A DNA stretch of 51,262 nt from Candidatus Saccharimonadia bacterium (lineage in GTDB: Bacteria; Patescibacteriota; Saccharimonadia; CAILAD01; BJGX01): positions 1 through 51,262 of the forward strand of contig JBIIIT010000001.1 in assembly GCA_044234435.1 (NCBI GenBank), in the 5' to 3' direction. Positions 4,062-42,198 of the stretch are shown in pieces (within the stretch, counting starts at the first letter, position 1; every line of letters begins with the position of its first letter). Below the pieces are notes generated by a model, which worked only from the letters and a program-made list of their open reading frames with translations, searched no databases and was not told where the DNA came from. A program made the translations under genes and the position numbers.

Positions 4062-4179
4062 TGATAGGTTTAGTTTTTTTCTACGATATTCAGAAGTTTT
4101 ACTAAACTTAGGTAAAATAATAAGCCTCTTCGGTTAAATTAATAAAAGGCTTTTGTTTTTGTTTGTATGTACGTAGTTA

Positions 4180-4209: not shown

Positions 4210-4253
4210 TTTAAAAACTGAACAAAATATTAGCTCTTCAAACCTGTTAACAC

Positions 4254-6401
4254 CTACAGCTTCTTCAGGGGTGCGTATTGTAAATTAAGTGTCTTTTTCA
4301 TTCCCGATTCAAAGCTGACATCCACCTCGGCACCCGAAACAGACAGCACCTTACCTTGGCCAAATGCCGGATGCATCACATTATCTCCTACTGCAACCTG
4401 AGCAATTTCTACTTCATCTGGAAAGTCGCTATCAAATGCTTCGCGTCTACTATCAGACAGAACTGAGCCCATTGATCCTATCGGCTCTTCGACCATTTCG
4501 ACAGGAATGTCCGAAATAAACCTTGAGGGAACATTGTGCTGAGTATTTCCATAAAGCATTCGAGACGATGCATTAAGCATATATAACTGCTGCTTAGCTC
4601 TAGTCATACCTACGTAGCAAAGACGCCTTTCTTCCTCTAGTTCGTCGGGCTCAAAGAATGTACGTGAGTGTGGAAACACCCCTTCTTCCATTCCGGCCAT
4701 AAAAACCACTTCAAACTCCAGCCCCTTTGCTGAATGAAGAGTCATAAGACTAACCGAATCTTTCATGCCATCATGCGAATCCAGATCCGAAACTAATGCC
4801 ACTTCTGTTAGGAAAGTTTCTAAGTCCAAGTCTTTGTAAACTTTAGCAACCCCCAAAAGCTCTTGAATATTTTCCACTCTATCTTCGGCAGATATTGTTC
4901 CGTCCTGCAAATAGCCAATATAATCTATTCTTTTTATAAGCGCATCCATCAAATCATAAACGTTCATATCTTGTTTAGATTTGAGATCCAAAAGTATCCC
5001 GCCTACAATCTCTATTTCTTTTAAGGCTTTGCCTCTTAGGCCAGGTATAACGCTAGGATTTGCAAGGGTCTCCAGTACATCTGGCTCGTACTTTTCTAAA
5101 TAATCAATTATTGAGGCAATGCTTTTTGCACCAACACCTCGCGTTGGGACATTTAATATTCGGGTAAGACTAACTAAGTCATTAGGTTGAAATATCACTC
5201 GCATATAGGCAAGAATGTCCTTTACTTCGCGCCTGTCGTAGAACCTGGTTCCGCCAACCACTTGATATGGGATATTGTAGCGCAGAAAACTTTCTTCCAA
5301 ACTTCGCGATTGAGCGTTGGTCCGATAAAGTACTGCAAAATCACTCAATCTTAAATCAGGGTTAATGCCGCGCAATCTTTCGATTGTTTGAATTATTGTT
5401 CTTCCCTCAGCCATTTCGTCTTGCACAGACAAAACATGTACTTTTTCACCCAGACCTAAATCGGTCCAAAGCTTTTTACTACTTCGGGATAGGTTTTTAG
5501 TTATCACTGAATGTGCGGCATCTAGTATCATTTGCGTAGAGCGGTAGTTCTGCTCGAGTTTGATCACTTTTGCGCTTGGATAATCAGACTCAAAATTTAG
5601 TATGTTCTGGTAATTTGCTCCGCGCCAAGAATAAATGCTCTGCCAGTCATCGCCCACCACGCATAGATTACTATGTTTCTTGGCAAGCAATTTAATAAGC
5701 TCATATTGCGCGTGGTTGGTATCTTGATACTCATCCACCAAAATATATTGAAATTGGTTCTGGTATTTTTCTAAAATATCATGCTCGTTCTTGAACAGTT
5801 TTACCAACTCCATAATAAGATCATCAAAATCAAAAGCCTTAGCCTTTCGAAGTTCCCTTTGGTAGATTGGATAAACTTCGGCAGCCATAAGCTGAAGCTG
5901 ATTCGAAGCCATGCTGCGATATTTTTCTGGTCCAATCAGTTCATTTTTAGCTGATGATATAACCCAAGCAATTCCTGAAGGAGTAATAGCTTTATCGCTA
6001 ACGTGCATACTCTTTAATATCTTTTTAATAAGTGCCTGAGAATCACCCGAATCGTAGATTAAAAAGTTACTGCCCATACCAACCCGCTCGGCTTCACGCC
6101 TGAGGATTCGATTGGCTATGGAGTGAAACGTGCCTAAAAAGGGGATTGGGTTTGCTCCGGCTTCATCGAAGCCAAGAAGGCGAGATACTCTGGAGCGCAT
6201 TTCGCCAGCGGCCTTGTTGGTAAAAGTAACTGCCAGGATATTGGATGGCGGGATTTTGCGTTCAGATATCAAATAGGCAATTCGGTGAGTGAGAGTCTTA
6301 GTTTTTCCACTACCAGCTCCAGCCAGCATAAGGATGGGTCCTTCGGTCGTTTCAACTGCTTCTGCTTGAGACTTGTTTAATCCTTCAAATAATTTACTCA
6401 T
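4254..6401 (-). CDS. pcrA: ATP-dependent DNA helicase PcrA/UvrD family
   Basis: Walker A AGAGSGKT near the N-terminus, DEYQDT (motif II), and YRS/QNYRST and VGMTRAK motifs. 715 aa. Confidence 0.9.
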   Translation of the reverse strand: MSKLFEGLNKSQAEAVETTEGPILMLAGAGSGKTKTLTHRIAYLISERKIPPSNILAVTFTNKAAGEMRSRVSRLLGFDEAGANPIPFLGTFHSIANRILRREAERVGMGSNFLIYDSGDSQALIKKILKSMHVSDKAITPSGIAWVISSAKNELIGPEKYRSMASNQLQLMAAEVYPIYQRELRKAKAFDFDDLIMELVKLFKNEHDILEKYQNQFQYILVDEYQDTNHAQYELIKLLAKKHSNLCVVGDDWQSIYSWRGANYQNILNFESDYPSAKVIKLEQNYRSTQMILDAAHSVITKNLSRSSKKLWTDLGLGEKVHVLSVQDEMAEGRTIIQTIERLRGINPDLRLSDFAVLYRTNAQSRSLEESFLRYNIPYQVVGGTRFYDRREVKDILAYMRVIFQPNDLVSLTRILNVPTRGVGAKSIASIIDYLEKYEPDVLETLANPSVIPGLRGKALKEIEIVGGILLDLKSKQDMNVYDLMDALIKRIDYIGYLQDGTISAEDRVENIQELLGVAKVYKDLDLETFLTEVALVSDLDSHDGMKDSVSLMTLHSAKGLEFEVVFMAGMEEGVFPHSRTFFEPDELEEERRLCYVGMTRAKQQLYMLNASSRMLYGNTQHNVPSRFISDIPVEMVEEPIGSMGSVLSDSRREAFDSDFPDEVEIAQVAVGDNVMHPAFGQGKVLSVSGAEVDVSFESGMKKTLNLQYAPLKKL

Positions 6402-6447
6402 TTATATATCATACACTGTAAGACTAATAGATTTAAGCATAAACACA

Positions 6448-6476
6448 TTGACTTTTTATACTTTTTATGGTAATAT
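6448..6476 (+). promoter_or_regulatory. sigma70-like promoter (TTGACT-17-TAATAT) driving the high-GC ORF
   Basis: TTGACT at 6448-6453, a 17-nt spacer, and TAATAT at 6471-6476. The GC content jumps immediately downstream of the -10 box. Confidence 0.5.
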
Positions 6477-6523
6477 ATAGGTCTTCTGGACAACCCTGTC
6501 TGGATGGAGCAAGGAGAAATACC

Positions 6524-6886
6524 TTGAAGGCAAGCAAGAAGAAGGCGATCATCGCCGCCCTCCTGACGGCCTGTGCTGTGTTGGCACTGATCATGGGAGG
6601 CATGGGCTCGTCGGCCTCGGCCGGTGGCTACAGTGGTGTCTCGACCGTCGCACTGCGGCAGGTCGAGGAGCTGTCGGGTCAGGCGAAGCTTGCAGTCAAG
6701 ATCTGCAACGTGTCGTCAGACGCTCGGCGCAGCTCCCTCATCAACAAGTTCGAGCGTCGTAAGTTCGAGCTCGACCTTGAGCTTGACCGTCTCGGCTACC
6801 CCTTCCAGTCGCCGATGCTCACCGAGTTCATGAACTCTCTTACGGTCGAGGGCAAGTGCCCGGCACCCGCCGGCGCCCTCGGCTAA
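6524..6886 (+). CDS. small secreted or membrane-anchored protein of unknown function, encoded in a high-GC island
   Basis: TTG start at 6524, preceded by AAGGAG (6511-6516) with a 7-nt spacer. The track's ATG at 6467 lies inside the predicted promoter spacer. The N-terminus (L/M)KASKKKAIIAALLTACAVLALIMGGMGSSASA-GG looks like a Sec signal with an ASA cleavage site, and LTAC is also lipobox-like. The mature part has two Cys. Third codon positions are overwhelmingly G/C in this frame. A GC-rich hairpin terminator follows. Confidence 0.65.
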   Translation: MKASKKKAIIAALLTACAVLALIMGGMGSSASAGGYSGVSTVALRQVEELSGQAKLAVKICNVSSDARRSSLINKFERRKFELDLELDRLGYPFQSPMLTEFMNSLTVEGKCPAPAGALG

Positions 6887-6890
6887 CTCA

Positions 6891-6940
6891 AGGCCCCGCA
6901 CATTCCACAACGTCGTGGATTGTAGCGGGGCCTCTCTTTT
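6891..6940 (+). terminator. rho-independent terminator (GC-rich stem AGGCCCCGC...GCGGGGCCT followed by CTCTCTTTT)
   Basis: Inverted repeat 6891-6899 / 6925-6933 with an inner TCCAC/GTGGA pairing, followed by a T-rich run. It starts 5 nt after the TAA stop at 6884-6886. Confidence 0.7.
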
Positions 6941-6948
6941 ATATGCAA

Positions 6949-7473
6949 TTATTGCTTCTTTGCTAGCTCGATACTATCTAAAACAACCTTCTTGGCAGCC
7001 TCGGCGTCTCCCCATCCATCAAAACTCACAGGGCTACCAGTCCATCCCTTTTTCCAGTCCTTGTAGTGAGCATAAAAATGCTCAATAACCTTCTGGAAAT
7101 TTTCTCCTAAGTCTTTAAGGTCTTTAATGTGATCCTTGCTTACATCATCGGCCGGTACACAAATTAGCTTTTCGTCTTTTTCTCCATCATCAATCATGTA
7201 TAAGACGCCAATTGGCCGAGCGGGCACAACGGTTCCGTGCGGCACTGATTCGTCAATTATCAATAGTCCGTCTAGAGGATCGCCATCCTCACACATTGTG
7301 CCGGGCACATAGCCATAGTCGCTAGGGTATCCAAGTGCAGTTCCGTTTACTCGATCTAAAAATAACCTTCCGGTTTCCTTATCGAATTCATACTTGTTCT
7401 TTTCGCCTTTACGAATTTCAATTACCAAATTTACAATTTCTGGTGATTTTTCACCATAGCTGAGTTCAGTCAT
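6949..7473 (-). CDS. ppa: inorganic pyrophosphatase (family I)
   Basis: 174 aa, with DGDPLDGLLI and a YE.DK...L.LDR-type N-terminus typical of soluble PPase. Confidence 0.9.
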   Translation of the reverse strand: MTELSYGEKSPEIVNLVIEIRKGEKNKYEFDKETGRLFLDRVNGTALGYPSDYGYVPGTMCEDGDPLDGLLIIDESVPHGTVVPARPIGVLYMIDDGEKDEKLICVPADDVSKDHIKDLKDLGENFQKVIEHFYAHYKDWKKGWTGSPVSFDGWGDAEAAKKVVLDSIELAKKQ

Positions 7474-7514
7474 TATTTCTCCTTAGTTTTATGAGTACAT
7501 TATAAACCTGGAAT

Positions 7515-8270
7515 TTAATTATTTCCAGATTGAAGCTGACATATTTTGCTAAACTGCCGGTAATTCAAGCTCGCACCCCCCACCAAAAGTCCATCGCAAT
7601 TTTCAGCATTCAAATATGCCGAAGCGTTGTCGCTATTCACGCTACCTCCATAAAGAAGCTTGATGCCCACAACTACCCTGGCTTGGTATTTATTTATTAA
7701 AAATCGACGAATTACCTGCATCATCTTCTCAACATCATGTGTACTGGCGTTCTCGCCGGTGCCTATAGCCCAAACCGGCTCATAGGCAATGACTACTTTT
7801 GAAACTTCTTTGGAAGTAATTTCTGATAAATCGGCCTCCAATTGATCAGTGACAGTTCGTTGCGCCAAGCCTTCTTCTCGTTGATGTAGGTTTTCACCAA
7901 CACACAAAATTGGAATTATGCCGTTTCTGATTGCAGCCGCAACCTTTAGAGAAATTAACTCGTTTGTCTCGCCAAAATGAATACGCCTTTCTGAATGGCC
8001 AATAATACAATACTCAGCCATCCCCTTAATCATTGGGCCGCTGACTTCACCCGTATAAGCCCCTTCATCTTTATCGTTTATATTTTGTGCGCCTATTTTG
8101 AATTTGGAATGATAAGCTTTTGCACTGACCAGCTCCAGGCTTATAAAATTTGGGCATAGAACAACTTCTGCCGACGGTTTTTGAATGTGTTTTTGTAACC
8201 TCTCTAAAAGGGTAAGTGACTGCTTAACATTCAAATTCATCTTCCAATTGCCGACAATGAGTTTTTTCAT
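7515..8270 (-). CDS. tpiA: triosephosphate isomerase
   Basis: Motifs GNWKMN, IIGHSERR and AYEPVWAIGTG. Confidence 0.92.
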   Translation of the reverse strand: MKKLIVGNWKMNLNVKQSLTLLERLQKHIQKPSAEVVLCPNFISLELVSAKAYHSKFKIGAQNINDKDEGAYTGEVSGPMIKGMAEYCIIGHSERRIHFGETNELISLKVAAAIRNGIIPILCVGENLHQREEGLAQRTVTDQLEADLSEITSKEVSKVVIAYEPVWAIGTGENASTHDVEKMMQVIRRFLINKYQARVVVGIKLLYGGSVNSDNASAYLNAENCDGLLVGGASLNYRQFSKICQLQSGNN

Positions 8271-12971: not shown

Positions 12972-14684
12972 ATGGGTATCAAAAACATCATTCCATCTCA
13001 AGTTCTAAACTCTAGGGGCGAGCCTACGGTTAAGGTAAAAATGGTAGCCGAAAATGGCAAAACTGCCAGCTTTGTAGTCCCAGGTGGGGCAAGTGTCGGC
13101 AAAAATGAAGCTGTTAAGAAATTTGATGGTGGTGATGTCTACGGAGGAAAGAGTGTTCTAGATAATATTAAATCAATTAAAACTGTAATTGCTCCTAAGT
13201 TCATAGGCTATCCGTTAGATCACCAAGAAGATTTTGACAGTTTACTTATTGCGCTTGACGGAACGCCGACCAAAGAGAATTTGGGATCTAATACGATTCT
13301 GGCTTTATCAGTGGCCTACTACAAATTAAGCGCTAAGCTTAGCAACAAGCCGCTGTGGCAATATACAGCCGAAAAGCTAAAGACAAGTCCCGAATTCCCA
13401 AGAATTTACGCAAATTTAGTCGGCGGAGGCAAGCACGCTCCCGGTCTAGATATTCAAGAATTTATGATTGTGCCCCAATCCAATAAACCAAATGAAGCAA
13501 TTGAAGAGATAGTTCGAATATACGAGACTGTAAAAACCATTATGACAAGTCTGTACGGGCCTACGGGAAAACTATCTGGTGATGAAGGTGCAATTGCGCC
13601 ACTTGGTGCCAGAACGGAAGTTGTCTTGGAGGCTCTGTCGGGATTAAGTCAAAAATCTGAGAAGAAGTTTGATATTGCATTAGATGTTGCTGCAAACAGC
13701 TTCTATGATGGTAAGAATTATTCCTTTGAAGGACAGAGTGTTCATGCCAATGATTTGATGGCAGTGTACCAAGATTGGAATAGCAAATTTGGCCTCTACT
13801 CCATAGAAGACCCTTTTGCTGAGGATGATTTAGAAGGTATTGAGCTTCTTAAGACAACCCCTAGAGAGAAGGGCTCTTTTATGGTCATTGGCGATGATTT
13901 TACTGTTACAAATTCCGAAAAAATAAAAGAATATGCCGAAAATAAGATCATAGATGGAGTCATAATCAAGCCCGACCAAGTTGGATCAATGAGTGAAGTA
14001 ATTAATGCAATAATGACTTCCAAACAAGCTGGATTAAAAATAATTGTTAGTCACAGAAGTGGAGAAAATAATGACGGATTTATAGTTGACCTAGCTTACG
14101 CAATTGGTGCTGACGGTATAAAAGTTGGAGCACCGAACAGAGGCGAAAGAATAGCAAAATACAATAGACTTTTAGACATCGAAAATGACCTTAAGGCAAT
14201 AAGTGGTGATGTTGATGATGTAGCTCAGACTCAATCAGCTCCTACTCCTCAACGAACGGAGAGTCAAAATTCAACCTCTGCTGCAGTACAGAGCAGTCAA
14301 GCTGCTATGCCCAACCCAAATCCACCAATAAATAATTTCAAAAAAACTGAACCAAATCAAAAAACTCAAATTGGCGGATCTAGAGATATTCATTTCGGAG
14401 CACAGTCAGCGAGTAATGAGCTTTCAAGCAATATGGCTGAAGCCGAAACAGACCATAATGAAAATAACAAAACTCTGGACAATGCCGCACTTACTCCAAA
14501 AGAATTGCCGGCTGTAAATGATGTAAAAATCAATCCGCCAGAAAACCCCATACCAATTGTTCCTCAAGAGCCTACTGCAGCTACAACGAGCTTCCAGAGT
14601 GCAACTTCCGAACTAAACCCTGCTCTAAGGGCAAATGATGGATCGCAATTAGGAAACGGTAATACTCCAACTATTTCAGCATAG
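12972..14684 (+). CDS. eno: enolase with a C-terminal low-complexity extension of about 160 aa
   Basis: Motifs LNSRGEPTVKV, IKPDQVGSMSE and SHRSGENND. From residue 408 onward (K408, nt 14193) the sequence is Pro/Gln/Asn/Ser/Thr-rich with no enolase similarity. Confidence 0.85.
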   Translation: MGIKNIIPSQVLNSRGEPTVKVKMVAENGKTASFVVPGGASVGKNEAVKKFDGGDVYGGKSVLDNIKSIKTVIAPKFIGYPLDHQEDFDSLLIALDGTPTKENLGSNTILALSVAYYKLSAKLSNKPLWQYTAEKLKTSPEFPRIYANLVGGGKHAPGLDIQEFMIVPQSNKPNEAIEEIVRIYETVKTIMTSLYGPTGKLSGDEGAIAPLGARTEVVLEALSGLSQKSEKKFDIALDVAANSFYDGKNYSFEGQSVHANDLMAVYQDWNSKFGLYSIEDPFAEDDLEGIELLKTTPREKGSFMVIGDDFTVTNSEKIKEYAENKIIDGVIIKPDQVGSMSEVINAIMTSKQAGLKIIVSHRSGENNDGFIVDLAYAIGADGIKVGAPNRGERIAKYNRLLDIENDLKAISGDVDDVAQTQSAPTPQRTESQNSTSAAVQSSQAAMPNPNPPINNFKKTEPNQKTQIGGSRDIHFGAQSASNELSSNMAEAETDHNENNKTLDNAALTPKELPAVNDVKINPPENPIPIVPQEPTAATTSFQSATSELNPALRANDGSQLGNGNTPTISA

Positions 14685-18997: not shown

Positions 18998-20020
18998 TCA
19001 AAATGCATTACTGTCATAACTGACGCTAAATATAACATTTACACCATTGTCAGAACCACCATAGACTCTAGAAACTTTACTGGCTTTTCCTCCACATTGG
19101 TGCACCTCAGACAGCAACACTTCTTTGGATGGAAAGTCAAAAGGCCCTGCCTTTGCGAGCTCAGAGATAAAGTAGTCAATAATTACCACTCCAAAGAGCC
19201 TCAGAGACATTAGCTGAAGCCAAGACGCATTGCGCAAATGTTCTTGGATGATAGGCCTTGATCCACCTTCGGTCGAAGTAGTCACAACGACTACCCCCTC
19301 TGGTTTAATAAGCCTAAGGCACTCCTGCCAGATTTCAATCCTGTCTTGTGCGGCATAGAGAAAGTTAACCATACTAATTTTATCAAAACTAGCACTCGGC
19401 AAACTCTTCATGTAGTCTAGCGCATCAGAATAAACAACTTCTGCAGAGTCTGATTTGATAAAACTTTGGAGCTTCTTTTTGGCTTGGCGTATCATCGACT
19501 TGGAGCTATCGACACCAACGACATCTACTTTTGCCATTTCCAAAGTGGCTAGCATCACATTGCCAGTACCACAGCCCACTTCAAGAATTTTTTCTCCATC
19601 TTTTACCTGCATTAAATCAACAACATGATTGATAAGATTTCGGTAAGGATAGAAATTCAAAAGGCCGTCATACATATATCCATAAACCCACCAAAGGGCC
19701 TTTGTTAGCCTATCTGCTTTCAAGAAGCGCAGAGTTCCCATCGCAAGCATTAACACAACCCACCAGAATATTAGTTTGGTGACGGTTGTTGGAAGAGTTT
19801 TACGAAAGAGCAAAAATGGCAGATATGGAGCAAGTAGAATAATTCGATATTCTACAAATTGCCACCAAAAGCGCCAACTAAAAACACCATGGCGCCTCGT
19901 TGCGTTTGCAACCACAAGATCAGCGAGTTTTTTCCAGGCCAATTTGAAAGTTGCAATATACAAAACTACAAACATCACCCAGGGGGTGAATGACTGCCAA
20001 TTTTCTTTGAGCCAGGCCAT
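18998..20020 (-). CDS. class I SAM-dependent methyltransferase with a hydrophobic N-terminal membrane region
   Basis: SAM motif I ILEVGCGTGN, preceded by about 110 aa of Trp/Phe/Leu-rich putative TM segments. Confidence 0.7.
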   Translation of the reverse strand: MAWLKENWQSFTPWVMFVVLYIATFKLAWKKLADLVVANATRRHGVFSWRFWWQFVEYRIILLAPYLPFLLFRKTLPTTVTKLIFWWVVLMLAMGTLRFLKADRLTKALWWVYGYMYDGLLNFYPYRNLINHVVDLMQVKDGEKILEVGCGTGNVMLATLEMAKVDVVGVDSSKSMIRQAKKKLQSFIKSDSAEVVYSDALDYMKSLPSASFDKISMVNFLYAAQDRIEIWQECLRLIKPEGVVVVTTSTEGGSRPIIQEHLRNASWLQLMSLRLFGVVIIDYFISELAKAGPFDFPSKEVLLSEVHQCGGKASKVSRVYGGSDNGVNVIFSVSYDSNAF

Positions 20021-20032
20021 TGCTTCCCCTTT

Positions 20033-20656
20033 CTAGAGTAGGATTTTGTCAGCAAAAGGTAGCCTAAAAAGTTCTGTAATGCCGAAGAGGTTTGCGGTTT
20101 CGCTCTCTTCAAGTGCCGGCATAACATCGTTAATAGCACAAACGCAGGGAATTGTTATTCCCATATGTTCTTTTGGCTCACCGATTTGCCTAAAAGGAAA
20201 ACCAAGCCAAGTAACAGTTCTGTAGAATTCTTCATCTACGATTGCAAAGACAGTATCGATATTGTGAGTATCGACTATATGAAATAGCACACGATACATG
20301 CCGATACTAATCTTACCTTCACGAAAATTTTTTCGAACACAAAGCCGTGAAATCTCGGCCGAATTGCCATAAGGCGAGATATCTACGTTGTGATGGTTTG
20401 AATCTTCTATTGGCAAAATACCTTTACTACCAAGTACAAGACGGGTAGTTCCAATTGCATTCAATGAAGCCGATGAAGTAGCAATTACTGAAATTGCGTA
20501 GTCATCATAGCTGTCATACTCTCGTTTTTCAGGGAAATCAGCTGGGTCAATGTATCCCATTTCAGAATAAACATCGAATCGACACTCCTGTATCAATTCA
20601 ATATCTGAGCTGTTTGCAACCCTGATGGTGACGAGAGGCGAAGGAATGCTGGGCAC
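20033..20656 (-). CDS. GNAT-fold N-acyl amino acid synthase-like protein (FeeM / OlsB / LuxI-related family)
   Basis: GTG start with AGGAGG 6 nt upstream. The pattern R.DVY.EMGYI....E.E.D.YDDYA..V.A......IGTTRLV ... AEISRLCVR ... FAIVDEEFYR..TWLGFPF resembles the FeeM-type family, as I remember it. Confidence 0.5.
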   Translation of the reverse strand: MPSIPSPLVTIRVANSSDIELIQECRFDVYSEMGYIDPADFPEKREYDSYDDYAISVIATSSASLNAIGTTRLVLGSKGILPIEDSNHHNVDISPYGNSAEISRLCVRKNFREGKISIGMYRVLFHIVDTHNIDTVFAIVDEEFYRTVTWLGFPFRQIGEPKEHMGITIPCVCAINDVMPALEESETANLFGITELFRLPFADKILL

Positions 20657-23550: not shown

Positions 23551-23582
23551 AAAAAAAGACCGAGGTTATCGGTCTTTTTTAA
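23551..23582. terminator. bidirectional hairpin terminator between tRNA-His and the convergent GGCT gene
   Basis: AAAAAAAGACCGA-GGTTA-TCGGTCTTTTTT. The hairpin contains the stop codon of the minus-strand ORF (23566-23568). Confidence 0.7.
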
Positions 23583-24015
23583 TTGCCTTAATATTATCTA
23601 TATATAACTTTGGCAAGCCTGCCTTCTGAGCACTTTCTATTACTTTGTTATGATATTTATCACTGGGATAATTAAATTTATTATCATCTATAAGAGTATA
23701 AATCACTGCTTGATGAAGTTCATTTTTATGGTCTATTACTTCAACAGATTTGCGTTCTCTTCTTTTGGGCACATGTTCAAAACCATCTAGACTAGACAGG
23801 CATCGATCGGTAACTTCATACAATAAACCCCACACTTCGGAGCCCTCTTCCTCTATGATATTAGCCGTACCTTTATTGTCCCAATTAGGAGAGCTGCCAG
23901 AATACATAAATTTATGTCCATTTAGCCTTGCAGGCCCTAGAGGCTTAGATTTTACGCATCCCCTGCTCTTCATTTGCTCTACCGACATATTGGAACCATA
24001 AGCAAAGTATTTCAT
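23566..24015 (-). CDS. gamma-glutamylcyclotransferase / AIG2-like family protein
   Basis: Canonical N-terminal YFAYGSNM motif, then VWGLLYEV and LDGFEHV (catalytic Glu context). 149 aa. Confidence 0.75.
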   Translation of the reverse strand: MKYFAYGSNMSVEQMKSRGCVKSKPLGPARLNGHKFMYSGSSPNWDNKGTANIIEEEGSEVWGLLYEVTDRCLSSLDGFEHVPKRRERKSVEVIDHKNELHQAVIYTLIDDNKFNYPSDKYHNKVIESAQKAGLPKLYIDNIKAIKKDR

Positions 24016-31214: not shown

Positions 31215-31646
31215 ATGTTTTCACTAAAACAACGATTTTCTAATAAGCCGTCGGGCTTCACCATACTAGATGTTGTAGTAATAATTATCGTAGTTGGCTT
31301 CTTTGCAATACTAATTATTCCGGGACTTATAAATGGCCCCTCAAGAGCCCGGGATGCGACCCGTAAAAGCGACTTAAGGGCAATCAAGACTCAGCTAGAG
31401 TCGTACTATTCTGAAAAAGGAAACTATCCAGCCAAGCTTACTGAACTTGAAGCTGGGGCAACTCCATTCATGAAAAAAGTTCCTACCGACCCTTCGACCA
31501 AAAAGGAGTATGTTTATATTACACAGGGTAATCCTCCTGGATCTTTTGAAATTCAAGCAACTCTTGAAAACAAAAACGACAAAGATTTAAAAAGCCTAGG
31601 TAGTGACCCGTCAAAGGGAATATATGTCGTCAGTAGCTCTAACTGA
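31215..31646 (+). CDS. type IV pilin / pseudopilin (prepilin-type N-terminal cleavage-methylation domain)
   Basis: Leader MFSLKQRFSNKPSG, then FTILDVVVIIIVVGFFAILIIPGL, with Asp rather than Glu at +5. DATRKSDLRAIKTQLESYY is typical of GspG/PilA-like pilins. Confidence 0.8.
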   Translation: MFSLKQRFSNKPSGFTILDVVVIIIVVGFFAILIIPGLINGPSRARDATRKSDLRAIKTQLESYYSEKGNYPAKLTELEAGATPFMKKVPTDPSTKKEYVYITQGNPPGSFEIQATLENKNDKDLKSLGSDPSKGIYVVSSSN

Positions 31647-33781: not shown

Positions 33782-33842
33782 GTATTAGATTATAGCAGGA
33801 GAATTGACTGTTACCCTATCATTAACTATTTATTATTAATAA

Positions 33843-34517
33843 TTATTTTATATCTTTTGAGGGGCTTGGCTTCTCATTGGGCATCTTGATCGAAGCTGGG
33901 GTAGGATAAATGGAGGAAGCTTCTGATTTTTTTGCTTCAGTCTGTTCGGGGCTAGAATTGTTCGTGCTTGTATCTAGTATGGGGTCTGGTTCGGGAAACA
34001 TAGAGTCTAGTCTAAATAATAAATATATTAATATTGCGAAACAACCCAAATAAATACCAATAGTGAACCCATTGATATTTTCTGAAAATCCTGAAAGCAA
34101 CCCTGTTGTTGTCATAAGAAGTATTGTGGATCCACCAGTTATACCAACTGATAATGGAGAGAAGCCTGTTAAAAAAATTGCAATTATAAAGCCTATTATT
34201 ACTGCAATAAGTGATGCATTAATTCTGTTAATTGAAGCGGAATTCTTTTGCTTCTTATATTCCTTTAGTTTCTCATTATATTCTGCTTGCAAATTTTTCT
34301 CACGATTAGTTATGCAATCTGAATCATAACTATACCTAGATGAGTAATTTCTTGAATTATAGCCATTGCAATAGTCGCTAATTTCAGTATATTGAGGATA
34401 TTTAGGCTCTGGAATATTTTTGTTATCCGGAAAAACCAGAAATACTAGTAACCCAATCATTGTGGGGAATATCAATGCAATTGCAATTGATAATACAATT
34501 TTTACTCCCCTACCCAT
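33843..34517 (-). CDS. hypothetical polytopic membrane protein
   Basis: 224-aa ORF with several hydrophobic helices and no recognisable motif. Confidence 0.45.
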   Translation of the reverse strand: MGRGVKIVLSIAIALIFPTMIGLLVFLVFPDNKNIPEPKYPQYTEISDYCNGYNSRNYSSRYSYDSDCITNREKNLQAEYNEKLKEYKKQKNSASINRINASLIAVIIGFIIAIFLTGFSPLSVGITGGSTILLMTTTGLLSGFSENINGFTIGIYLGCFAILIYLLFRLDSMFPEPDPILDTSTNNSSPEQTEAKKSEASSIYPTPASIKMPNEKPSPSKDIK

Positions 34518-34953
34518 TAGAATGCTTTCTGGTTAGTAACACTGTAGCTATTATTAATGCAAAAAATGCCATCGTTACTACAATAAGAGCTCCATATGAA
34601 CCAAAGTTTTCGAATACATAAGACGATTGAAGAAATATTAATATTAAACCAAGCACCAATATAAAGTTTCTTTGAATTTTACTTTTCATAATTACACCAA
34701 TTATTATTAGTACTACGCCAATGGCAATTCTTATGCCAAAATTTAGCGCGTTTGATTCTATACCAAGTATTTTATTCGGAAGAAAAGTTAAGCCGACCAA
34801 CCCAGAAACTGTAGCTGATAGAAGAATTAGCGCAATCATAGCTTCTCTAGACATTGAGTGGCCCTTTTTTGTACCATTAACTGCAAAATAAACTATCATA
34901 ATTATTGCAGCAGGATAAATAAGCACAGATAAAAATGTAAATGCTAATGCCAT
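34510..34953 (-). CDS. hypothetical polytopic membrane protein
   Basis: 147-aa ORF with 4-5 hydrophobic helices. It overlaps the next gene by 8 nt. Confidence 0.45.
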   Translation of the reverse strand: MALAFTFLSVLIYPAAIIMIVYFAVNGTKKGHSMSREAMIALILLSATVSGLVGLTFLPNKILGIESNALNFGIRIAIGVVLIIIGVIMKSKIQRNFILVLGLILIFLQSSYVFENFGSYGALIVVTMAFFALIIATVLLTRKHSNG

Positions 34954-34984
34954 AAAGTTATCTTAGTTATAAAAATTTAATTCG

Positions 34985-35452
34985 TCAATTATTGTTACTA
35001 TAGCAGATTGCTATCGCCAGTGCGTCAGCAGCGTCATCGGGTTTAGGAATAATATTGAGCTTTAGTATTTTTTTGACCATTTCCTGGACCTGTTTCTTTG
35101 TTGCCTTACCATAACCTGTAACAGCCATCTTAACCTGCAATGGCGTGTATTCTGCGATTTCAATATTGTTTTGTGATGCCACCAGCAGCACAATTCCTCT
35201 AGCCTGACTAACACTCATGGCTGTAGTTATGTTATTTGTAAAAAATAATTTTTCAACTGCCATCACATCAGGCCTATGAGAATGAACAAGCTCTTGTAGA
35301 TCATCAAATAAAATACTAAGCCTTTTTGGCATTTCTAAATCTTTAGACGTAGATATGACTCCATAATCTAATTTAGAAATTTTTGAACCGTCTTTTGAAA
35401 TCAATCCAAAGCCAGTAGTGGCTGTTCCGGGATCAATTCCTAGCACCTTCAT
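34985..35452 (-). CDS. ruvC: crossover junction endodeoxyribonuclease RuvC
   Basis: MKVLGIDPGTATTGFG start, EKLFF and DAADALAIA. Confidence 0.92.
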   Translation of the reverse strand: MKVLGIDPGTATTGFGLISKDGSKISKLDYGVISTSKDLEMPKRLSILFDDLQELVHSHRPDVMAVEKLFFTNNITTAMSVSQARGIVLLVASQNNIEIAEYTPLQVKMAVTGYGKATKKQVQEMVKKILKLNIIPKPDDAADALAIAICYSNNN

Positions 35453-37749: not shown

Positions 37750-37826
37750 GGGCCCATAGCTCAGTTGGTTAGAGCACCTGCCTTTTAAGCAGGGTGTCGT
37801 GAGTTCGAGTCTCACTGGGCCCTCCA
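37750..37826 (+). tRNA. tRNA-Lys (anticodon UUU), CCA encoded
   Basis: GGGCCCA...TGGGCCC-T-CCA, with anticodon stem CCTGC/GCAGG and loop CTTTTAA. Confidence 0.9.
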
Positions 37827-37827
37827 T

Positions 37828-37858
37828 AAAAAACACTCATAAAGCGGAGTGTTTTTTT
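37828..37858 (+). terminator. rho-independent terminator after tRNA-Lys
   Basis: ACACTC (37833-38) / GAGTGT (37847-52), followed by TTTTTT. Confidence 0.6.
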
Positions 37859-37924
37859 AGTATTGAAAAAAGACTAATTTATCTATAAAATACTCTGGCA
37901 GTCTTTCCTCGAAAGGAGGAATGA

Positions 37925-38665
37925 ATGAGTTCTTTTATTGTCGTGCCCGACACACAAGGCGAATTACATTTGCTCTACGGAATATTGGAGCAGATATTTG
38001 ACAGAAATCTGCTTAAAGACAGAAAGCTAGTTTTCTTGGGCGACTATATGAACCGAGGAGAAAACACAAAGCTTTTGCTAGATGAATGTATTTCTCTTCA
38101 AAAGCTTGGTCATATTTTTCTACGGGGAAACCATGAAGATGTATTGATTCGTGCTTATCTTGCCCATGCTAATGGTGATGAGTTTTTTAGAGATATTCTT
38201 ATCTACCAATGGCTTCGCATGGAATCAAACACGCTGCTAAGCTATGGGATTAGCAAACACAGAAAAAATAACTTCAAAATCTTTGAAGAATTTGTTAATG
38301 CTCTTGAAGCAAGTGGCCATCTAAAATTCCTGATGAATCTACCTGCTTACTATCAGGATGATAAACTTTTGATGATACATGCTGGAATCAAACCAGGCAT
38401 ATATTGGAAAACACAAAAAATCGATATCGATTCAAAGCTAGATTCTTATCGATACGAGATTGAGCAAATGTATTCTTTTGAATTGGCCGACTACGAAGCG
38501 AGTACCGAAAAGGATATTTGCGTTGTTAGTGGCCATTCCCCCAGAGATAAGCCCTTTATCTCCAAAGGTCGTGTACTTCTAGATTGTGGGGCCGGAAGGC
38601 TTAACCGACCACTAGTGGCCTGGATTAGCGACACCAATGAAGTACTTTATTCATACAAAAAATAA
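37925..38665 (+). CDS. PPP-family metallophosphoesterase (ApaH / PrpA-like) with substituted metal-ligand motifs
   Basis: AAAGGAGG SD. Motif II is GDYMNRG, motif III is RGNHE, and later IHAG and SGHSP are present. Motif I reads PDTQGE instead of GDxHG. Confidence 0.7.
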   Translation: MSSFIVVPDTQGELHLLYGILEQIFDRNLLKDRKLVFLGDYMNRGENTKLLLDECISLQKLGHIFLRGNHEDVLIRAYLAHANGDEFFRDILIYQWLRMESNTLLSYGISKHRKNNFKIFEEFVNALEASGHLKFLMNLPAYYQDDKLLMIHAGIKPGIYWKTQKIDIDSKLDSYRYEIEQMYSFELADYEASTEKDICVVSGHSPRDKPFISKGRVLLDCGAGRLNRPLVAWISDTNEVLYSYKK

Positions 38666-38666
38666 T

Positions 38667-38695
38667 AGCCACCTATTTTTTAGGTGGCTTTTTTG
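38667..38695. terminator. bidirectional hairpin terminator shared by convergent genes
   Basis: AGCCACCT (38667-74) / AGGTGGCT (38682-89), followed by TTTTTT. An A-rich run lies on the other side. The hairpin includes the stop codon of the minus-strand ORF. Confidence 0.7.
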
Positions 38696-39255
38696 TTATT
38701 CAAGAACCATTCACGGATAACTTCACAAGACTTATCGGCTTGTGGTGAGTAATTATCTTCATTAAAAAAGAATGATGCGTCTCTACTATCAAGCTTTGCC
38801 CTAGAAATAATTACTTCATTAATGTATCTAATATCGATACCGCATGACAAAGCATTATCTACAATTTTCATAACAGTCTGAAAATGAGGTTTGCCAGTTT
38901 CAGAAGGGCGAGAAAGACGAATAGTCAGAGCCTCTCTGCCAAGACTATCGACATTAATATAGTCGAATTTGTAATGACCAGAGTAGATTCCGTTATGTTC
39001 ACAAATTGAATTGAAAATTCTTGGCGGAAAATCAATGATGAGAGCAAAGATACTATCATCAATATCTTCTGTAATGTCTGGATAGCTTTCCGAATTCCAA
39101 GCCCCATCAATCCTAAAATAATCAAACTTCCAACCCCTAATTCTGTGGACACCACAGTTTTCAAGTTCAAGGCCATACTTTCCTAGGCCTTTTGCATTTG
39201 GAAAACGCTCCAAGTCTTCAAAATTCATTAAGGTACTAAAGGCTGCATACAACAT
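38680..39255 (-). CDS. hypothetical protein, possibly a divergent GGCT/AIG2-fold protein
   Basis: GGGAGGTGA SD. It is collinear by eye with the GGCT at 23566-24015: LYAAFSTLMNFEDL vs YFAYGSNMSVEQM, IRGWKFDYF vs LNGHKFMYS, SIFALIIDF vs EVWGLLYEV, and ICEHNG vs LDGFEH. The YGSN motif is not conserved. Confidence 0.35.
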   Translation of the reverse strand: MLYAAFSTLMNFEDLERFPNAKGLGKYGLELENCGVHRIRGWKFDYFRIDGAWNSESYPDITEDIDDSIFALIIDFPPRIFNSICEHNGIYSGHYKFDYINVDSLGREALTIRLSRPSETGKPHFQTVMKIVDNALSCGIDIRYINEVIISRAKLDSRDASFFFNEDNYSPQADKSCEVIREWFLNNKKAT

Positions 39256-39354
39256 ACTCTCACCTCCCAGAAATGTTGTAAGCGAGAATTATACATTTTT
39301 TAGTAATTATTTTCAATTTGAAATTTGTTATGTTAATTTTGATATAATTACTAA

Positions 39355-40053
39355 ATGGCTAAAAAAATTCTTATTGTTGATAATTCAGCCCACAAAAAGT
39401 GTGATAGATGTTCACAATTCCACAGGCACTTTAGCTCAAAAAGCAGTGTGCTCCATCCTGCCGATAGAGATTTACCGAAAAATCTTGATCCATATAGCCA
39501 CATAATTTTGACAGGATCGGCCGATAGCGTAAATGAGCTTAGTAAGATTTATAAAAAACTTAAACCCCTGATACTTCAAGCAGAAAAAGAAAAAATCCCT
39601 GTCCTGGGAATTTGCTACGGGTTTCAGGCTATAGTTGCTACTTTTGCAGACCTAACTTCGATTGAGCATTATCAAAATCCTGAATTAGGCTGGACTAAAA
39701 TATATGTTACTAGTCCTTCAAGAATTTTTAAGGGAATCCCTAGTAAGTTTTATGCTTTTGAAAATCACACATCTTCAGTGAGTCATTTGCCATCAGAGCT
39801 AAGAAAAACGGCTATTTCTCACAGAAAAAATATTCAGGCATTTGAACATAAAAATAGTCCAATATTTGGTGTTCAGTTTCACCCTGAATACACTACTTTT
39901 CATGGCCGCAGGACTATAAATTATTGGCTAAAAAGAAGAATACCATTTAGATGGTTTACAAATATTAACAAGCCTCCAAGATATAACCCTGAAATTGCCG
40001 AAAAAATAATTACTAATTTTTATCATTCAACTAAAGAATTTAAGAAGAAGTAA
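39355..40053 (+). CDS. stand-alone class I glutamine amidotransferase-fold protein (GATase1 / peptidase C26-like)
   Basis: Nucleophile elbow LGICYGFQAI and the His-Glu pair in GVQFHPEY. There is no attached synthase domain. Confidence 0.7.
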   Translation: MAKKILIVDNSAHKKCDRCSQFHRHFSSKSSVLHPADRDLPKNLDPYSHIILTGSADSVNELSKIYKKLKPLILQAEKEKIPVLGICYGFQAIVATFADLTSIEHYQNPELGWTKIYVTSPSRIFKGIPSKFYAFENHTSSVSHLPSELRKTAISHRKNIQAFEHKNSPIFGVQFHPEYTTFHGRRTINYWLKRRIPFRWFTNINKPPRYNPEIAEKIITNFYHSTKEFKKK

Positions 40054-40642
40054 TTTCTTCTTCATATATTCTTTTTAATATTCTGTTAAATATTTTACGA
40101 CCATCTCCATCTTTTCCACCACGTTCAGGATGGAACTGCACACCCCAAACCTGCTTGGTTCTGTGCTTGATAATCTCTACCCCTTCACTTGAGGCGGCAA
40201 TACAACGAAGCTCATCAGGAAGTTCGGTGATTATCCACCGATTTGATTGAAATACCATAGCCTCTTCTTTTCCAGCCATTACTTTGTTTCTTTGAATAGC
40301 GACTATTGGGAAAAGGCCCTTTCTTCTCTCCTTAAAGCTCCTATGAAGTTCAGCACCATAGGCATAGCCAATTATTTGACAGCCCAAACAAATTCCCACA
40401 ATTGGCTTTTTAGCTTTTTTAACCATTTGAATTTGGTCTTCATACAAATGGGAGAATCTTTTTAGGGATCTTTTTCTACCCTCTACTTCAATTCCTCCGC
40501 CAGAAAGTACAATTACATCAAACGGTTCAACGTCGTAACCACTAACCTCATCATAGTTTATGGTCGTTAAATCATGCTTCTCAAGCAAATTGTTTAGACG
40601 CTTCTTATAGTGAGTATTGTTATTTATTAGTAGTACTTTCAC
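40040..40642 (-). CDS. stand-alone class I glutamine amidotransferase-fold protein (GATase1 / peptidase C26-like)
   Basis: VGICLGCQIIG and GVQFHPER. 200 aa. Its 3' end overlaps the convergent GATase gene by 14 nt. Confidence 0.7.
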   Translation of the reverse strand: MKVLLINNNTHYKKRLNNLLEKHDLTTINYDEVSGYDVEPFDVIVLSGGGIEVEGRKRSLKRFSHLYEDQIQMVKKAKKPIVGICLGCQIIGYAYGAELHRSFKERRKGLFPIVAIQRNKVMAGKEEAMVFQSNRWIITELPDELRCIAASSEGVEIIKHRTKQVWGVQFHPERGGKDGDGRKIFNRILKRIYEEEITSS

Positions 40643-40699
40643 GGAATTTCAGATTATAAATTTATAAAAGGATATAACAAGTAGTAATAGTCGGGGAAA

Positions 40700-41605
40700 T
40701 TATGCCCCTACCTTGTCTCTCTTTCTCTTTTTTGGAACATGGTCCTCTACATATTCAATCATTTTACCTGCAATATCATGCTTGGTTACTTCTTCAATTG
40801 CACCAAACATTGGGAAGGCATTAACCTCCATAACCAAAGGTCCACGCTCTGAAGGTAGCAGGTCAACACCGGCAATATCTAGATTCATGGCTTTTGCAGC
40901 TCCTAGCGCCATTTGTCTTTCGGCACGAGTTAGCTTAATGGCAGTTCCTTGCCCGCCAATATGAATATTGGATCTGAATTCACCTTCAGGGCCCTGGCGC
41001 TTCATAGCTCCGACTATTTTTCCGCCAACGATAAATGCTCTAATATCGACCCCTTTGGACTCTTCGATAAACTCTTGAACTAAGATGTTCACATTTTGAG
41101 AATAGAATGCTTGAATTATTGCGCGTGCGGCACTTCGGGTTTCGGCAAGCATTACCCCCATACCCTGACTTCCTCGTGCCACTTTAACTATCAATGGAGC
41201 TCCACCAACCATGGCGATTAGCTCATCGACAGCACCGGTATTGTTGGCGACTACAGTTTTTGGGATATCGATATCGTGACGGGCTAATAACTGCATGCTT
41301 CTGAGCTTATCCCTTGTGCGAATAAAGGCTAGCGATCCAGTGGTTGAAAATACATTCATCATCTCAAACTGGCGAATTATTGCACTACCATATGCTTGGC
41401 TTGAAATTGAAATTCTGGGAATAATTGCGTCGATTCCCTCAAGTGGCTTTCCTTCGTAGTATACCTGCGGTTTACTTTTTACTACGTTGCAATAACACTT
41501 GGTGTAATCAACAATTCTTACATCATGACCCCGTTTTTGTGCGGCTTCTAAGAGTCGCTCGGCGCCGTTTTTTCGATTGGGTCTTGAAAGTACCAATATT
41601 TTCAT
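40700..41605 (-). CDS. rimK: RimK-type ATP-grasp alpha-L-glutamate ligase (ribosomal protein S6 modification family)
   Basis: AAAGGAGG SD. It is collinear with E. coli RimK as I remember it: MKI..LSR, RDKLRSMQLLAR, GGAPLIVK, LAETRSAA, ILVQEFI, DIR, FRSN.H.GG and RGPLVMEVNA. Confidence 0.85.
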   Translation of the reverse strand: MKILVLSRPNRKNGAERLLEAAQKRGHDVRIVDYTKCYCNVVKSKPQVYYEGKPLEGIDAIIPRISISSQAYGSAIIRQFEMMNVFSTTGSLAFIRTRDKLRSMQLLARHDIDIPKTVVANNTGAVDELIAMVGGAPLIVKVARGSQGMGVMLAETRSAARAIIQAFYSQNVNILVQEFIEESKGVDIRAFIVGGKIVGAMKRQGPEGEFRSNIHIGGQGTAIKLTRAERQMALGAAKAMNLDIAGVDLLPSERGPLVMEVNAFPMFGAIEEVTKHDIAGKMIEYVEDHVPKKRKRDKVGA

Positions 41606-41712
41606 AAGGCCTCCTTTCTTAATGCTTATGTTTATTTTAATTGAAAAATAACTTTATTAACAGAATTAAATGTAACTCAGCAATTTTACAGATAAAAAGC
41701 GCTTTTAGTCAA

Positions 41713-42198
41713 CTATTTTTTGGCTTTACCGACAGTGAGATACATAACAAATATCCACAAAATTAGTAGGCCTAAAGCCACGAAACGCAGATCATAAGAA
41801 AGTGCAGCTAGATTATGCTCGGTGACGAGCTTATCTCTGAATGAACTAGCTAAGCCTTCTAGGGCATACCCTACAAATGCAAATGCCGAAATAAAACCAG
41901 CAATGGCTGCTTTTATTTTGCTTTTGGGATACTTTGAATCCCTAACATTTTTACCTATGGTGCATAAAACAATAGGCAATACTAGCAGAATTATACCTAT
42001 TCCCACACCTGAATATTCAATATTTTTAGCCCCAATAAGTTTTTCTATAACATCTGTCAGCTGAGTTGAAGCTGCAATTCCTATCACTGTTCCAATCATA
42101 ATTCTTTGTGATTTTTCTTCACCTAAAAAGAAGCTGCCGACGGTTGATGCAGCAATTATTGATAGAAAAATAATATCGTAACCAAAATTAAAATTCAT
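41713..42198 (-). CDS. hypothetical polytopic membrane protein
   Basis: 161-aa ORF with about four hydrophobic helices and no motif I recognise. Confidence 0.45.
   Translation of the reverse strand: MNFNFGYDIIFLSIIAASTVGSFFLGEEKSQRIMIGTVIGIAASTQLTDVIEKLIGAKNIEYSGVGIGIILLVLPIVLCTIGKNVRDSKYPKSKIKAAIAGFISAFAFVGYALEGLASSFRDKLVTEHNLAALSYDLRFVALGLLILWIFVMYLTVGKAKK

Follow-up and report, generated by a model that had tools for sequence, protein, structure and literature searches.

Why should a genome-reduced, host-dependent bacterium keep a gene for the glutamate ligase RimK beside two stand-alone genes of the amidotransferase fold? The question is raised by a 51,262-nucleotide (nt) stretch of DNA from Candidatus Saccharimonadia bacterium (assembly GCA_044234435.1, contig JBIIIT010000001.1, positions 1 to 51,262; hereafter the window), in which rimK is followed by a gene of the class-I glutamine amidotransferase (GATase) or peptidase C26 fold (gatB), a convergent paralogue (gatA), a gene for a 191 amino acid (aa) protein resembling gamma-glutamylcyclotransferase (GGCT), a phosphoesterase gene and a tRNA-Lys(UUU) gene. 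A first-pass annotation had read the five protein-coding genes as a self-contained island encoding a glutamyl write-and-erase module. We find instead that rimK and gatB form a conserved, vertically inherited backbone, whereas the other three genes lie in a mosaic, recombining slot beside tRNA-Lys; the idea of a write-and-erase module holds in so far as RimK and the GATases recur, but not for the five genes as one unit, nor for the GGCT-like protein, whose active site is altered. The reading that we favour, tentatively and without calling it probable, is that the core of the locus is a lineage-specific variant of the Rim system, in which GATase-fold hydrolases stand in place of the protease RimB. 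The core comprises the following genes:

39355..40053, plus strand: gatA, class-I GATase/peptidase C26 fold (Pfam), 232 aa
40040..40642, minus strand: gatB, class-I GATase/peptidase C26 fold (Pfam), 200 aa, GTG start
40700..41605, minus strand: rimK, predicted S6-type alpha-L-glutamate ligase (Rimk_N and RimK domains; NF007764), 301 aa

Distribution of gatB and rimB beside rimK

Our scan for RimK, with one genome per species, yielded 80 loci, and look-ups of gatA and gatB homologues added more; the visible neighbourhood extended 5-10 kb to either side of each match, and the comparison with rimB was made within ±8 kb. Wherever a Saccharimonadia locus encodes a RimK with 65% identity or more to that of the window, gatB directly follows rimK (17 of the 17 distinct RimK sequences of this clade), with gaps of 10-57 nt between the two genes. 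In most clade loci gatA is convergent with gatB, the exceptions being L012, L027 and the contig of P0042, where gatA is absent and a DUF192 or membrane protein gene follows. This clade-wide recurrence bears out the first-pass view that RimK and the two GATases are not biosynthetic leftovers. Within the distance covered, no RimB-like gene is present in any GATase-linked locus, and a search of the window itself at E<=1 gave no RimB-like match other than a spurious one of 34 aa; the RimB family (PF05618), which marks RimBK and RimABK arrangements, is thus missing from the window locus.

Other members of the Saccharimonadia present the complementary state. Three loci (L029, L030 and L105) carry rimB-rimK and no gatB within the same syntenic frame, running from dnaK-dnaJ to tRNA-Lys and comEC, and a fourth (L013) shows a RimB-like gene where its contig ends. 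Among 65 rimK loci from other phyla, rimB adjoins rimK in 35 and a GATase gene in none. In our neighbour-joining tree the GATase-linked RimKs form one clade, the sister group of which is a RimB-linked pair from Saccharimonadia, a topology that points to a single origin. L105 was considered as a possible combination of GATase, RimB and RimK, and so as an exception to the complementarity of rimB and gatB; this was rejected, and the complementarity holds, because its GATase falls in a separate orthologous group (group C, below) of the GATase tree.

The contig of P0042 carries, among its genes at 3826-7630, a GGDEF diguanylate-cyclase gene next to a series of ATP-grasp_4, RimK and GATase genes, an arrangement worth recording because cyclic di-GMP (c-di-GMP) regulates RimK in Pseudomonas (PMC7343187).

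The ligase

The RimK of the window contains the Pfam domains Rimk_N (PF18030, 111 bits) and RimK ATP-grasp (PF08443, 204 bits), and reaches 338 bits with the NCBIfam equivalog model of S6--L-glutamate ligases (NF007764; cutoff 331). It matches Pseudomonas RimK (7qys) at E=1.7e-93 and E. coli RimK (4iwx) at E=6e-89, its residues 1-290 align without gaps to 7qys, 7qyr, 5zct and 4iwx (E=1e-89 to 1e-93), and over its full length it is about 55% identical to solved RimKs. On the strength of this score and of its full-length matches to solved structures, it is predicted to be a canonical alpha-L-glutamate ligase of the S6-modification type.

In P. aeruginosa RimK, contacts with poly-glutamate are made by S7, R8, S14, R64, S68, R189 and N262 (PMC10092738). 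Six of the seven are kept in the window (S7, R8, R64, S68, R189 and N262), position 14 being occupied by Gly. R64, R189 and N262 are invariant across the RimKs compared. S14 is likewise invariant in RimB-linked or solitary RimKs (67 of 67), whereas 14 of 17 GATase-linked RimKs have Gly or Asn at this position, and S7 and S68 are similarly relaxed among them.

The GATase-fold proteins

Both gatA and gatB pass the Pfam thresholds for GATase (91.7 and 85.8 bits, respectively) and for Peptidase_C26 (44.2 bits each), yet the two are only about 26% identical to each other, and gatA bears a C-terminal extension. The gatA triad (C87, H176 and E178) is invariant across orthologues, as is C85 of gatB, in which an HPE motif at residues 171-173 is also conserved; the catalytic Cys-His-Glu triad is intact in both families. 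Among named proteins, the two match archaeal GMP synthase subunit A, TrpG/PabA and CarA best, in every case far below equivalog cutoffs: against NF001975 (GMP synthase subunit A, cutoff 198) the scores are 90.7 and 80.4 bits. Of solved structures, gatA comes closest to those of archaeal GMP synthase subunit A and matches plant gamma-glutamyl peptidase 1 more weakly. No gene for an ATP-PPase, TrpE/PabB or CarB adjoins gatA or gatB, and a related genome encodes a full-length GuaA in addition. Consequently, given scores below the equivalog cutoffs and the absence of partner genes, we reject an identity as GMP synthase or anthranilate synthase subunits.

A neighbour-joining tree divides the GATases into three orthologous groups, of which group A comprises those convergent with gatB (gatA), group B those directly after rimK (gatB), and group C those that follow a methyltransferase gene and normally precede a second, GSH-S_ATP-like ATP-grasp gene. 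Among more distant relatives, two gatA homologues (P0119 and P0124) occur in unrelated contexts and offer no functional clue, relatives of gatB adjoin an R2K_3 ATP-grasp gene and an NlpC/P60 gene, and one distant gatB relative adjoins a protein with weak, sub-threshold similarity to FemAB/GNAT.

Some features of these families are recorded here in their own right. Orthologues of gatA possess an N-terminal CxxC motif (CDRC at window positions 39400-39411, residues 16-19; CNAC, CYRC and CSYC elsewhere), which is lost in L014; it is atypical for class-I GATases and could be a metal or redox site. Group C GATases lie downstream of a divergent methyltransferase gene in L012 (5659-8255), L013 (7001-8504) and L105 (5001-5594). 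In the first two the GATase is paired with the GSH-S_ATP-like ATP-grasp enzyme, L012 having in addition an unknown protein of 313 aa; L105 lacks that ATP-grasp enzyme, and its GATase gene directly adjoins rimB-rimK. In L010 (6460-8246), an NlpC/P60 gene, a gatB-like GATase gene and a convergent R2K_3-type ATP-grasp gene stand amid genes of nucleotide metabolism, a pairing that could relate to the chemistry of peptidoglycan stem peptides.

A variant of the Rim system and its alternatives

RimB removes glutamates from RpsF (S6) and modulates RimK (PMC11957791, PMC7343187). In the variant that we propose, RimK would be co-transcribed with gatB and flanked by the convergent gatA, and gatA and gatB would fill the niche that the retropepsin-like RimB holds in other bacteria. 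Judging by homology only, RimK would spend ATP on attaching L-glutamate to the C-terminus of S6 and/or on making free poly-alpha-glutamate. The GATase-fold enzymes would control this reaction hydrolytically, most likely by removing or turning over glutamyl units, and the main alternative within the proposal is that their hydrolysis of glutamine feeds or gates RimK. Of these roles we lean, by analogy and with reserve, towards hydrolytic turnover, because pairs of a ligase and a GATase-fold hydrolase have precedents in FPGS/gamma-glutamyl hydrolase (GGH) and cyanophycin synthetase/cyanophycinase. We infer that the GATases took over the partner role of RimB and that they erase glutamate. Besides the canonical RimK, its close coupling to gatB, the single origin and the intact triads, several observations argue for a Rim variant: the loss of rimB coincides with the gain of gatB, relatives of gatB adjoin other ATP-grasp ligases (GSH-S_ATP-like and R2K_3), and GGCT-fold genes recur beside gatA.

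Comparison with characterised systems places the locus closest to RimK/RimB (RimABK) of Pseudomonas and other bacteria. The likeness lies in a RimK that resembles theirs along its whole length at above-cutoff score, in its operon with a small hydrolase-fold partner, and in the sister Saccharimonadia that still carry rimB-rimK at the same genomic position. The window differs in having neither RimB, a retropepsin-like aspartic endopeptidase, nor RimA, in having instead two partners of the Cys-His-Glu class-I GATase/C26 fold, encoded downstream of rimK, and in the change at S14. The locus descends from the Rim system and would work like it, without the RimB by which the RimBK and RimABK arrangements are recognised. 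Since a write-and-erase partner for RimK is already known in RimB (PMC11957791, PMC7343187), only the partners are new, and the first-pass impression that no characterised system has this composition stands for the partners but not for the concept. Our literature search, which did not extend to the amidoligase survey of Iyer et al. 2009, gave no paper that joins RimK with Saccharibacteria or with an amidotransferase partner.

Other ligase and hydrolase pairs (FPGS/GGH, CphA/CphB, PuuA/PuuD and BtrJ/BtrG) resemble the window locus in logic only. FPGS/GGH and cyanophycin synthetase/cyanophycinase likewise combine a tail-forming ligase with a hydrolase of class-I GATase-like fold (C26 in the case of GGH, a family whose threshold both window proteins pass), but these hydrolases act on gamma-glutamyl or beta-aspartyl links, whereas RimK makes alpha-linked glutamate; moreover, FPGS is a ligase of the Mur type and not an ATP-grasp enzyme, and cyanophycinase uses a Ser nucleophile. 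In butirosin (BtrJ/BtrG) and putrescine (PuuA/PuuD) metabolism, a glutamyl ligase is matched by a remover of the GGCT fold (BtrG) or the C26/GATase fold (PuuD). The ligases there form gamma-glutamyl amides with small molecules or carrier proteins, whereas the window RimK appears to be a canonical alpha-ligase, and the GGCT-fold protein of the window, unlike BtrG, has neither the catalytic Glu nor the YGSL motif. CarA/CarB, archaeal GMP synthase A/B and MurT/GatD share with the window a small stand-alone class-I GATase beside an ATP-dependent activating enzyme, but the window proteins score 80-91 against 198 bits, no cognate synthase is present, and RimK is not known to use ammonia.

Several points weigh against the Rim variant, and above all against turnover. 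The weightiest of them concerns the type of bond: the C26/GATase enzymes characterised so far cleave gamma-glutamyl amides, but the bonds that RimK forms are alpha-peptide bonds. The functional link between the GATases and RimK is drawn from gene context and sequence, and the neighbour-joining trees carry no support values. gatB is a minimal GATase of 200 aa that resembles ammonia-donating subunits (GuaA-A, TrpG and CarA), a size and a similarity that would favour the role of a glutaminase subunit over that of a peptidase. The loss of S14 is specific to the GATase-linked clade, so the acceptor may have changed. Furthermore, rpsF, the gene for S6, was found neither in the window nor in any locus compared, and rimB could lie elsewhere in the genomes of the clade, as only ±8 kb were covered.

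The alternative that survives best, which we consider unlikely yet serious, sees in RimK and gatB a glutamine-dependent enzyme of two components, gatB being its glutaminase subunit, which supplies RimK with glutamate or ammonia. In one version, glutamate from glutamine is handed to RimK, and glutamylation reads out the glutamine supply; in the other, ammonia reaches the acyl-phosphate formed by RimK and caps the tail as a C-terminal amide. Beyond its best matches among such subunits (GMP synthase subunit A, TrpG/PabA and the carbamoyl-phosphate synthetase small subunit), gatB is tightly coupled to an ATP-dependent, carboxylate-activating enzyme, as amidotransferase logic would have it, its paralogues pair with other ATP-grasp ligases, and the glutamate that a glutaminase releases is RimK's own substrate. 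Indeed, carbamoyl-phosphate synthetase pairs an ATP-grasp enzyme with a class-I GATase. However, the gapless alignment over residues 1-290 leaves RimK with no extra domain or evident tunnel-forming insertion, we know of no precedent for a GATase that channels glutamate instead of ammonia, and the second GATase, the GGCT-fold neighbours and the loss of RimB are left unexplained.

It is improbable, in our judgement, that the genes are neighbours with no shared function, the GATases being glutaminases or gamma-glutamyl hydrolases of a general kind, by which an organism with a reduced genome scavenges glutamate or ammonia, and their adjacency to rimK being synteny inherited in an accessory-gathering region between dnaKJ and comEC. 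The region is a hot spot of mosaic content (ABC transporter, DUF4287, phosphoesterase and unknown families), distant gatA homologues sit in unrelated contexts, and synteny is strongly conserved in Saccharimonadia generally, all of which would suit mere adjacency. Against this, the gap of 10-57 nt between rimK and gatB is kept while RimK identity drops to 65%, the complementarity with rimB is strict within one syntenic frame, and related GATases are independently paired with three other ligase types, which would be hard to obtain by chance. Least probable of all is that the RimK of this clade no longer acts mainly on S6 and instead makes a small glutamyl peptide or metabolite, or attaches a transient protecting group that GATase/C26 and GGCT-fold enzymes later remove, in the manner of PuuA/PuuD or BtrJ/BtrG: the Gly or Asn at position 14, the relaxed S7 and S68, the recurrence at the locus of folds that hydrolyse gamma-glutamyl compounds (C26 and GGCT) and the example of BtrG, a GGCT-fold enzyme that removes a protective gamma-glutamyl group, all speak for it, but RimK scores above the equivalog cutoff for S6--Glu ligases and retains R64, R189 and N262, the GGCT-fold partner is missing in many lineages and lacks its catalytic residues in the window, and conservation at the locus extends to no transporter, carrier protein or additional tailoring enzyme.

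To return to the Rim variant, glutamylation of S6 by RimK is among the few known dynamic modifications of the bacterial ribosome, and its control has been worked out only in Pseudomonas (RimA, RimB and c-di-GMP). That a genome-reduced, host-dependent clade of Saccharimonadia keeps RimK but has two amidotransferase-fold enzymes in exchange for RimB points either to a new enzymology of polyglutamate removal or capping, or to a direct input of glutamine into ribosome modification. A bolder and somewhat doubtful form of the proposal is that in this one clade RimB has been replaced by class-I GATase/C26-fold cysteine hydrolases, a type of RimK partner not recognised before, and that these would be either the first GATase-fold trimmers of alpha-linked polyglutamate tails on a ribosomal protein, or a means of making ribosomal glutamylation depend on glutamine hydrolysis, with nitrogen status gating translation in an ultra-reduced episymbiont. 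RimK, gatB and gatA provide a concrete, testable set of three proteins.

The variable slot beside tRNA-Lys

Between gatB and comEC, and around the edge of the core, lie the following features:

37750..37826, plus strand: tRNA-Lys(UUU) (ARAGORN; Rfam, 74 bits)
37833..37858, plus strand: hairpin and T-run 3' of tRNA-Lys, read from the sequence (ACACTC-loop-GAGTGT, then T7)
37925..38665, plus strand: putative PPP-family metallophosphoesterase, 246 aa (Pfam Metallophos)
38667..38689, both strands: bidirectional intrinsic terminator (9-bp stem with 5 G-C pairs, T-run on each strand)
38680..39255, minus strand: divergent protein of predicted GGCT/AIG2 fold, 191 aa (profiles, AlphaFold2 model, Foldseek)
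39256..39354, no strand assigned: putative divergent promoter region between the GGCT-like gene and gatA (consensus scan)
41683..41712, minus strand: promoter-like site 5' of rimK (TTGACT-18-TAAAAT, 10 of 12 positions; consensus match only)
41713..42198, minus strand: conserved membrane protein, 161 aa, between dnaJ and rimK

The five genes, their orientations (+,-,+,-,-), tRNA-Lys(UUU), the hairpin shared by the first convergent pair and the overlap of the GATase 3' ends (14 nt, 40040-40053) were all as first annotated. The uniform minus-strand backbone described at the same time extends from 15.6 to 51 kb, with one plus-strand open reading frame (ORF) at 31215-31646 as an exception. As the same gene set also occurs on independent metagenome contigs, and as the ratio of nonsynonymous to synonymous divergence (dN/dS) is 0.01-0.05 for rimK, gatB and the 191-aa ORF where synonymous sites are unsaturated, the ORFs of the locus are real genes under constraint.

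In 12 of 14 related loci scanned, tRNA-Lys(UUU) stands on the way from the GATase cluster to comEC (it was not found in L014 and L023); it is a conserved backbone landmark that forms the edge of the variable slot. A comparison with L098 is the most direct illustration of this slot. The backbone of L098 is about 93% identical to the window at the nucleotide level (RimK 99%, gatB 97% and ComEC 96%), yet its gatA is only 75% identical, its slot lacks the phosphoesterase and has an AIG2_2 gene of another kind, nothing in L098 corresponds to window positions 37870-39337, and identity falls sharply at about 40,000-40,090, the junction of gatA and gatB. L100 presents the reverse pattern: ComEC is 71% identical, whereas the GGCT-like protein is 96% identical (90-95% at the nucleotide level), its gene having a synonymous divergence (dS) of 0.31 against saturated flanks, with gatA at 90% and the phosphoesterase at 75%. 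In L101 a pair of ABC-transporter genes is placed between the GGCT-like gene and the phosphoesterase gene, and the same pair occurs alone in L017 and L018; the slot content is thus mosaic in L017, L100 and L101. GGCT-fold genes, always divergent from gatA, occupy the slot in about six lineages, namely that of the window, L098, L009/L022, L023 and L024 (two copies each), and L100/L101. Consequently, gatA and a divergent GGCT-fold gene make up an exchangeable cassette in a hot spot between gatB and tRNA-Lys, and the neighbourhood comparison upholds the recurrence of rimK-gatB and of slot GGCT-fold genes, the phosphoesterase recurring in three lineages only and being separable.

No integrase is encoded among the ORFs of the window, and no repeat of the end of tRNA-Lys is present within 36.0-43.5 kb. 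The GC content and the GC content at third codon positions (GC3) of the five genes are within ±1.6 standard deviations of those of the window's genes, with no codon anomaly, so that the compositional comparison of 37.9-41.6 kb with the backbone gives no sign of foreign origin. We therefore reject a classical integrated island; the island idea holds only for about 37.83-40.05 kb, and there in the sense of a recombination hot spot rather than of an integrated element, because integrase, att-like repeat and GC or codon anomaly are all lacking. Gene-scale mosaic recombination is thereby documented at a tRNA-Lys hot spot in Patescibacteria genomes.

Three further observations concern the slot in related loci. 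In L098 (4282-5251), two full tRNA-Lys(UUU) genes flank a 179-aa ORF that belongs to no family, which looks like a trace left by an insertion or a duplication at the tRNA gene. The AIG2_2 gene that is intact in L009 (8463-9017) is split in the near-identical L008 (8403-9037) into three short ORFs, which suggests that a slot gene is decaying in one strain. Finally, a conserved family of 258-360 aa, divergent from gatA, takes the slot position that elsewhere holds GGCT-fold genes in L014 (8398-9174), L025 (3493-4575) and L026 (7174-7953); a likeness to N-formylglutamate amidohydrolase was considered for this family and rejected, there being no support from Pfam, NCBIfam or PDB profiles.

The GGCT-like protein and the phosphoesterase

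The 191-aa protein has no Pfam match and only five close homologues, and a direct BLASTP comparison with the syntenic AIG2_2 protein of L009 gave nothing, profiles being required. An exhaustive profile search with its family reaches bona fide AIG2_2/GGACT proteins, profile-profile alignment (hhalign) with bona fide AIG2 proteins gives probabilities of 97.5% and 96.6%, and the profile matches human GGCT (2pn7) at E=3e-4. An AlphaFold2 model built from six close homologues only was unusable (pLDDT 49), and distant relatives were needed; the model from this wider alignment (pLDDT 86.5, pTM 0.83) has human GGCT (2rbh) as its top Foldseek match (E=6e-8, TM 0.63-0.70), followed by further human GGCT structures (2rbh, 3cry and 2i5t spanning E=6e-8 to 7e-7) and then by YkqA and ChaC2. 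Profiles, model and structural matches thus agree with the first-pass suggestion in predicting a GGCT fold.

Active cyclotransferases are recognised by a YGSL or YGSN substrate-loop motif and a catalytic Glu (E98 in human GGCT, E82 in GGACT). In the window protein the motif is replaced by AFSTL (residues 5-9) and the Glu by Asn88, and it is because of these replacements that a role as a cyclotransferase "eraser" appears doubtful. Despite the loss of these active-site residues the protein is under strong purifying selection (dN/dS 0.02-0.05), and it probably binds a glutamyl ligand or regulates, rather than cleaves. A canonical paralogue is encoded outside the cluster:

23566..24015, minus strand: canonical AIG2_2/GGACT protein, 149 aa (AIG2_2 52.3 bits, GGACT 49.9 bits)

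It aligns to the 191-aa family with 96.6% probability in hhalign. Because it keeps an intact YFAYGSNM motif and the Glu (Glu80), the genome apparently holds an active GGCT-fold enzyme away from the rimK locus. The paralogue gene adjoins a cluster of tRNA-Gly/Arg/His genes and overlaps by one base the stop of a 339-aa membrane/coiled-coil ORF.

The phosphoesterase scores 38.5 bits against Pfam Metallophos (cutoff 21.5), and its matches to NCBIfam models of the ApaH/PrpE type are far below their cutoffs; the nearest solved structure is Rhizobiales-like phosphatase 2 (5vjv, E=3.4e-7). Of the PPP-family motifs GDxHG, GDxxDRG and GNHE, II (here GDYMNRG) and III (GNHE) are present, and motif I reads PDTQG instead of GDxHG, a change of His to Gln that is common to the homologue in L101. 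The gene recurs only in L100 and L101 (73-75% identity), which with the window makes three lineages, and is absent from all other syntenic loci compared; it is a separable, independent cargo on the tRNA-Lys side of the slot.

Expression signals at the locus

The hairpin at 37833..37858 is likely a terminator, although it is absent from the output of our consensus terminator scan, and the terminator at 38667..38689 is common to the convergent phosphoesterase and GGCT-like genes. The spacer between the GGCT-like gene and gatA contains an imperfect 26-nt inverted repeat (39299-39324 and 39330-39355) and a minus-strand promoter-like site, TTGAAA-17-TATAAT, at 39316-39288, which agrees with the consensus at 11 of 12 positions. 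The promoter-like site of rimK sits in the 107-nt gap that follows the gene for the 161-aa membrane protein; this protein has no family match in Pfam or NCBIfam, and homologues hold the same position in L008/9, L016-L020 and L098. Strong Shine-Dalgarno sequences, which had been noted for at least three genes, do precede the phosphoesterase gene (AAAGGAGGAATGAATG), the 191-aa ORF (GGGAGGTGAGAGTATG) and rimK (AAAGGAGGCCTTATG); none precedes gatA or gatB. Two other ideas on the locus were rejected: a riboswitch or other known RNA, as an Rfam scan of the locus gave tRNAs only, and anti-phage defence, as PADLOC matched none of six proteins.

Other features of the window

A patch of about 400 nt at 6467-6900 has a GC content of 56-67% in a genome of 38% GC. 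It coincides with a plus-strand ORF of 139 aa (6467-6886), hydrophobic at its N-terminus and matched by neither Pfam nor NCBIfam. The patch has no Rfam match and an RNA fold z-score of -2.98 on the plus strand; it may have been acquired recently from a donor of high GC content, or may be a structured RNA not yet recognised.

Between ruvA and ruvC (33808-34986) lie two ORFs (33843-34517 and 34510-34953), the second with weak TgpA_N similarity. Both are missing in L098, a close relative, and their GC3 is the lowest in the window (z = -2.5). L002 has a further ORF, of 168 aa, between yebC and ruvC, and the region looks like a second small hot spot of insertion and deletion.

At 18998-20656, the gene for a FeeM-like N-acyl amino acid synthase (GNAT) adjoins one for a class-I methyltransferase, a pair that would speak of small-molecule acylation, which is unexpected in a reduced genome. 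The enolase ORF at 12972-14684 is 570 aa long, and the Pfam enolase domains end near residue 408, beyond which is an uncharacterised C-terminal extension of about 160 aa.

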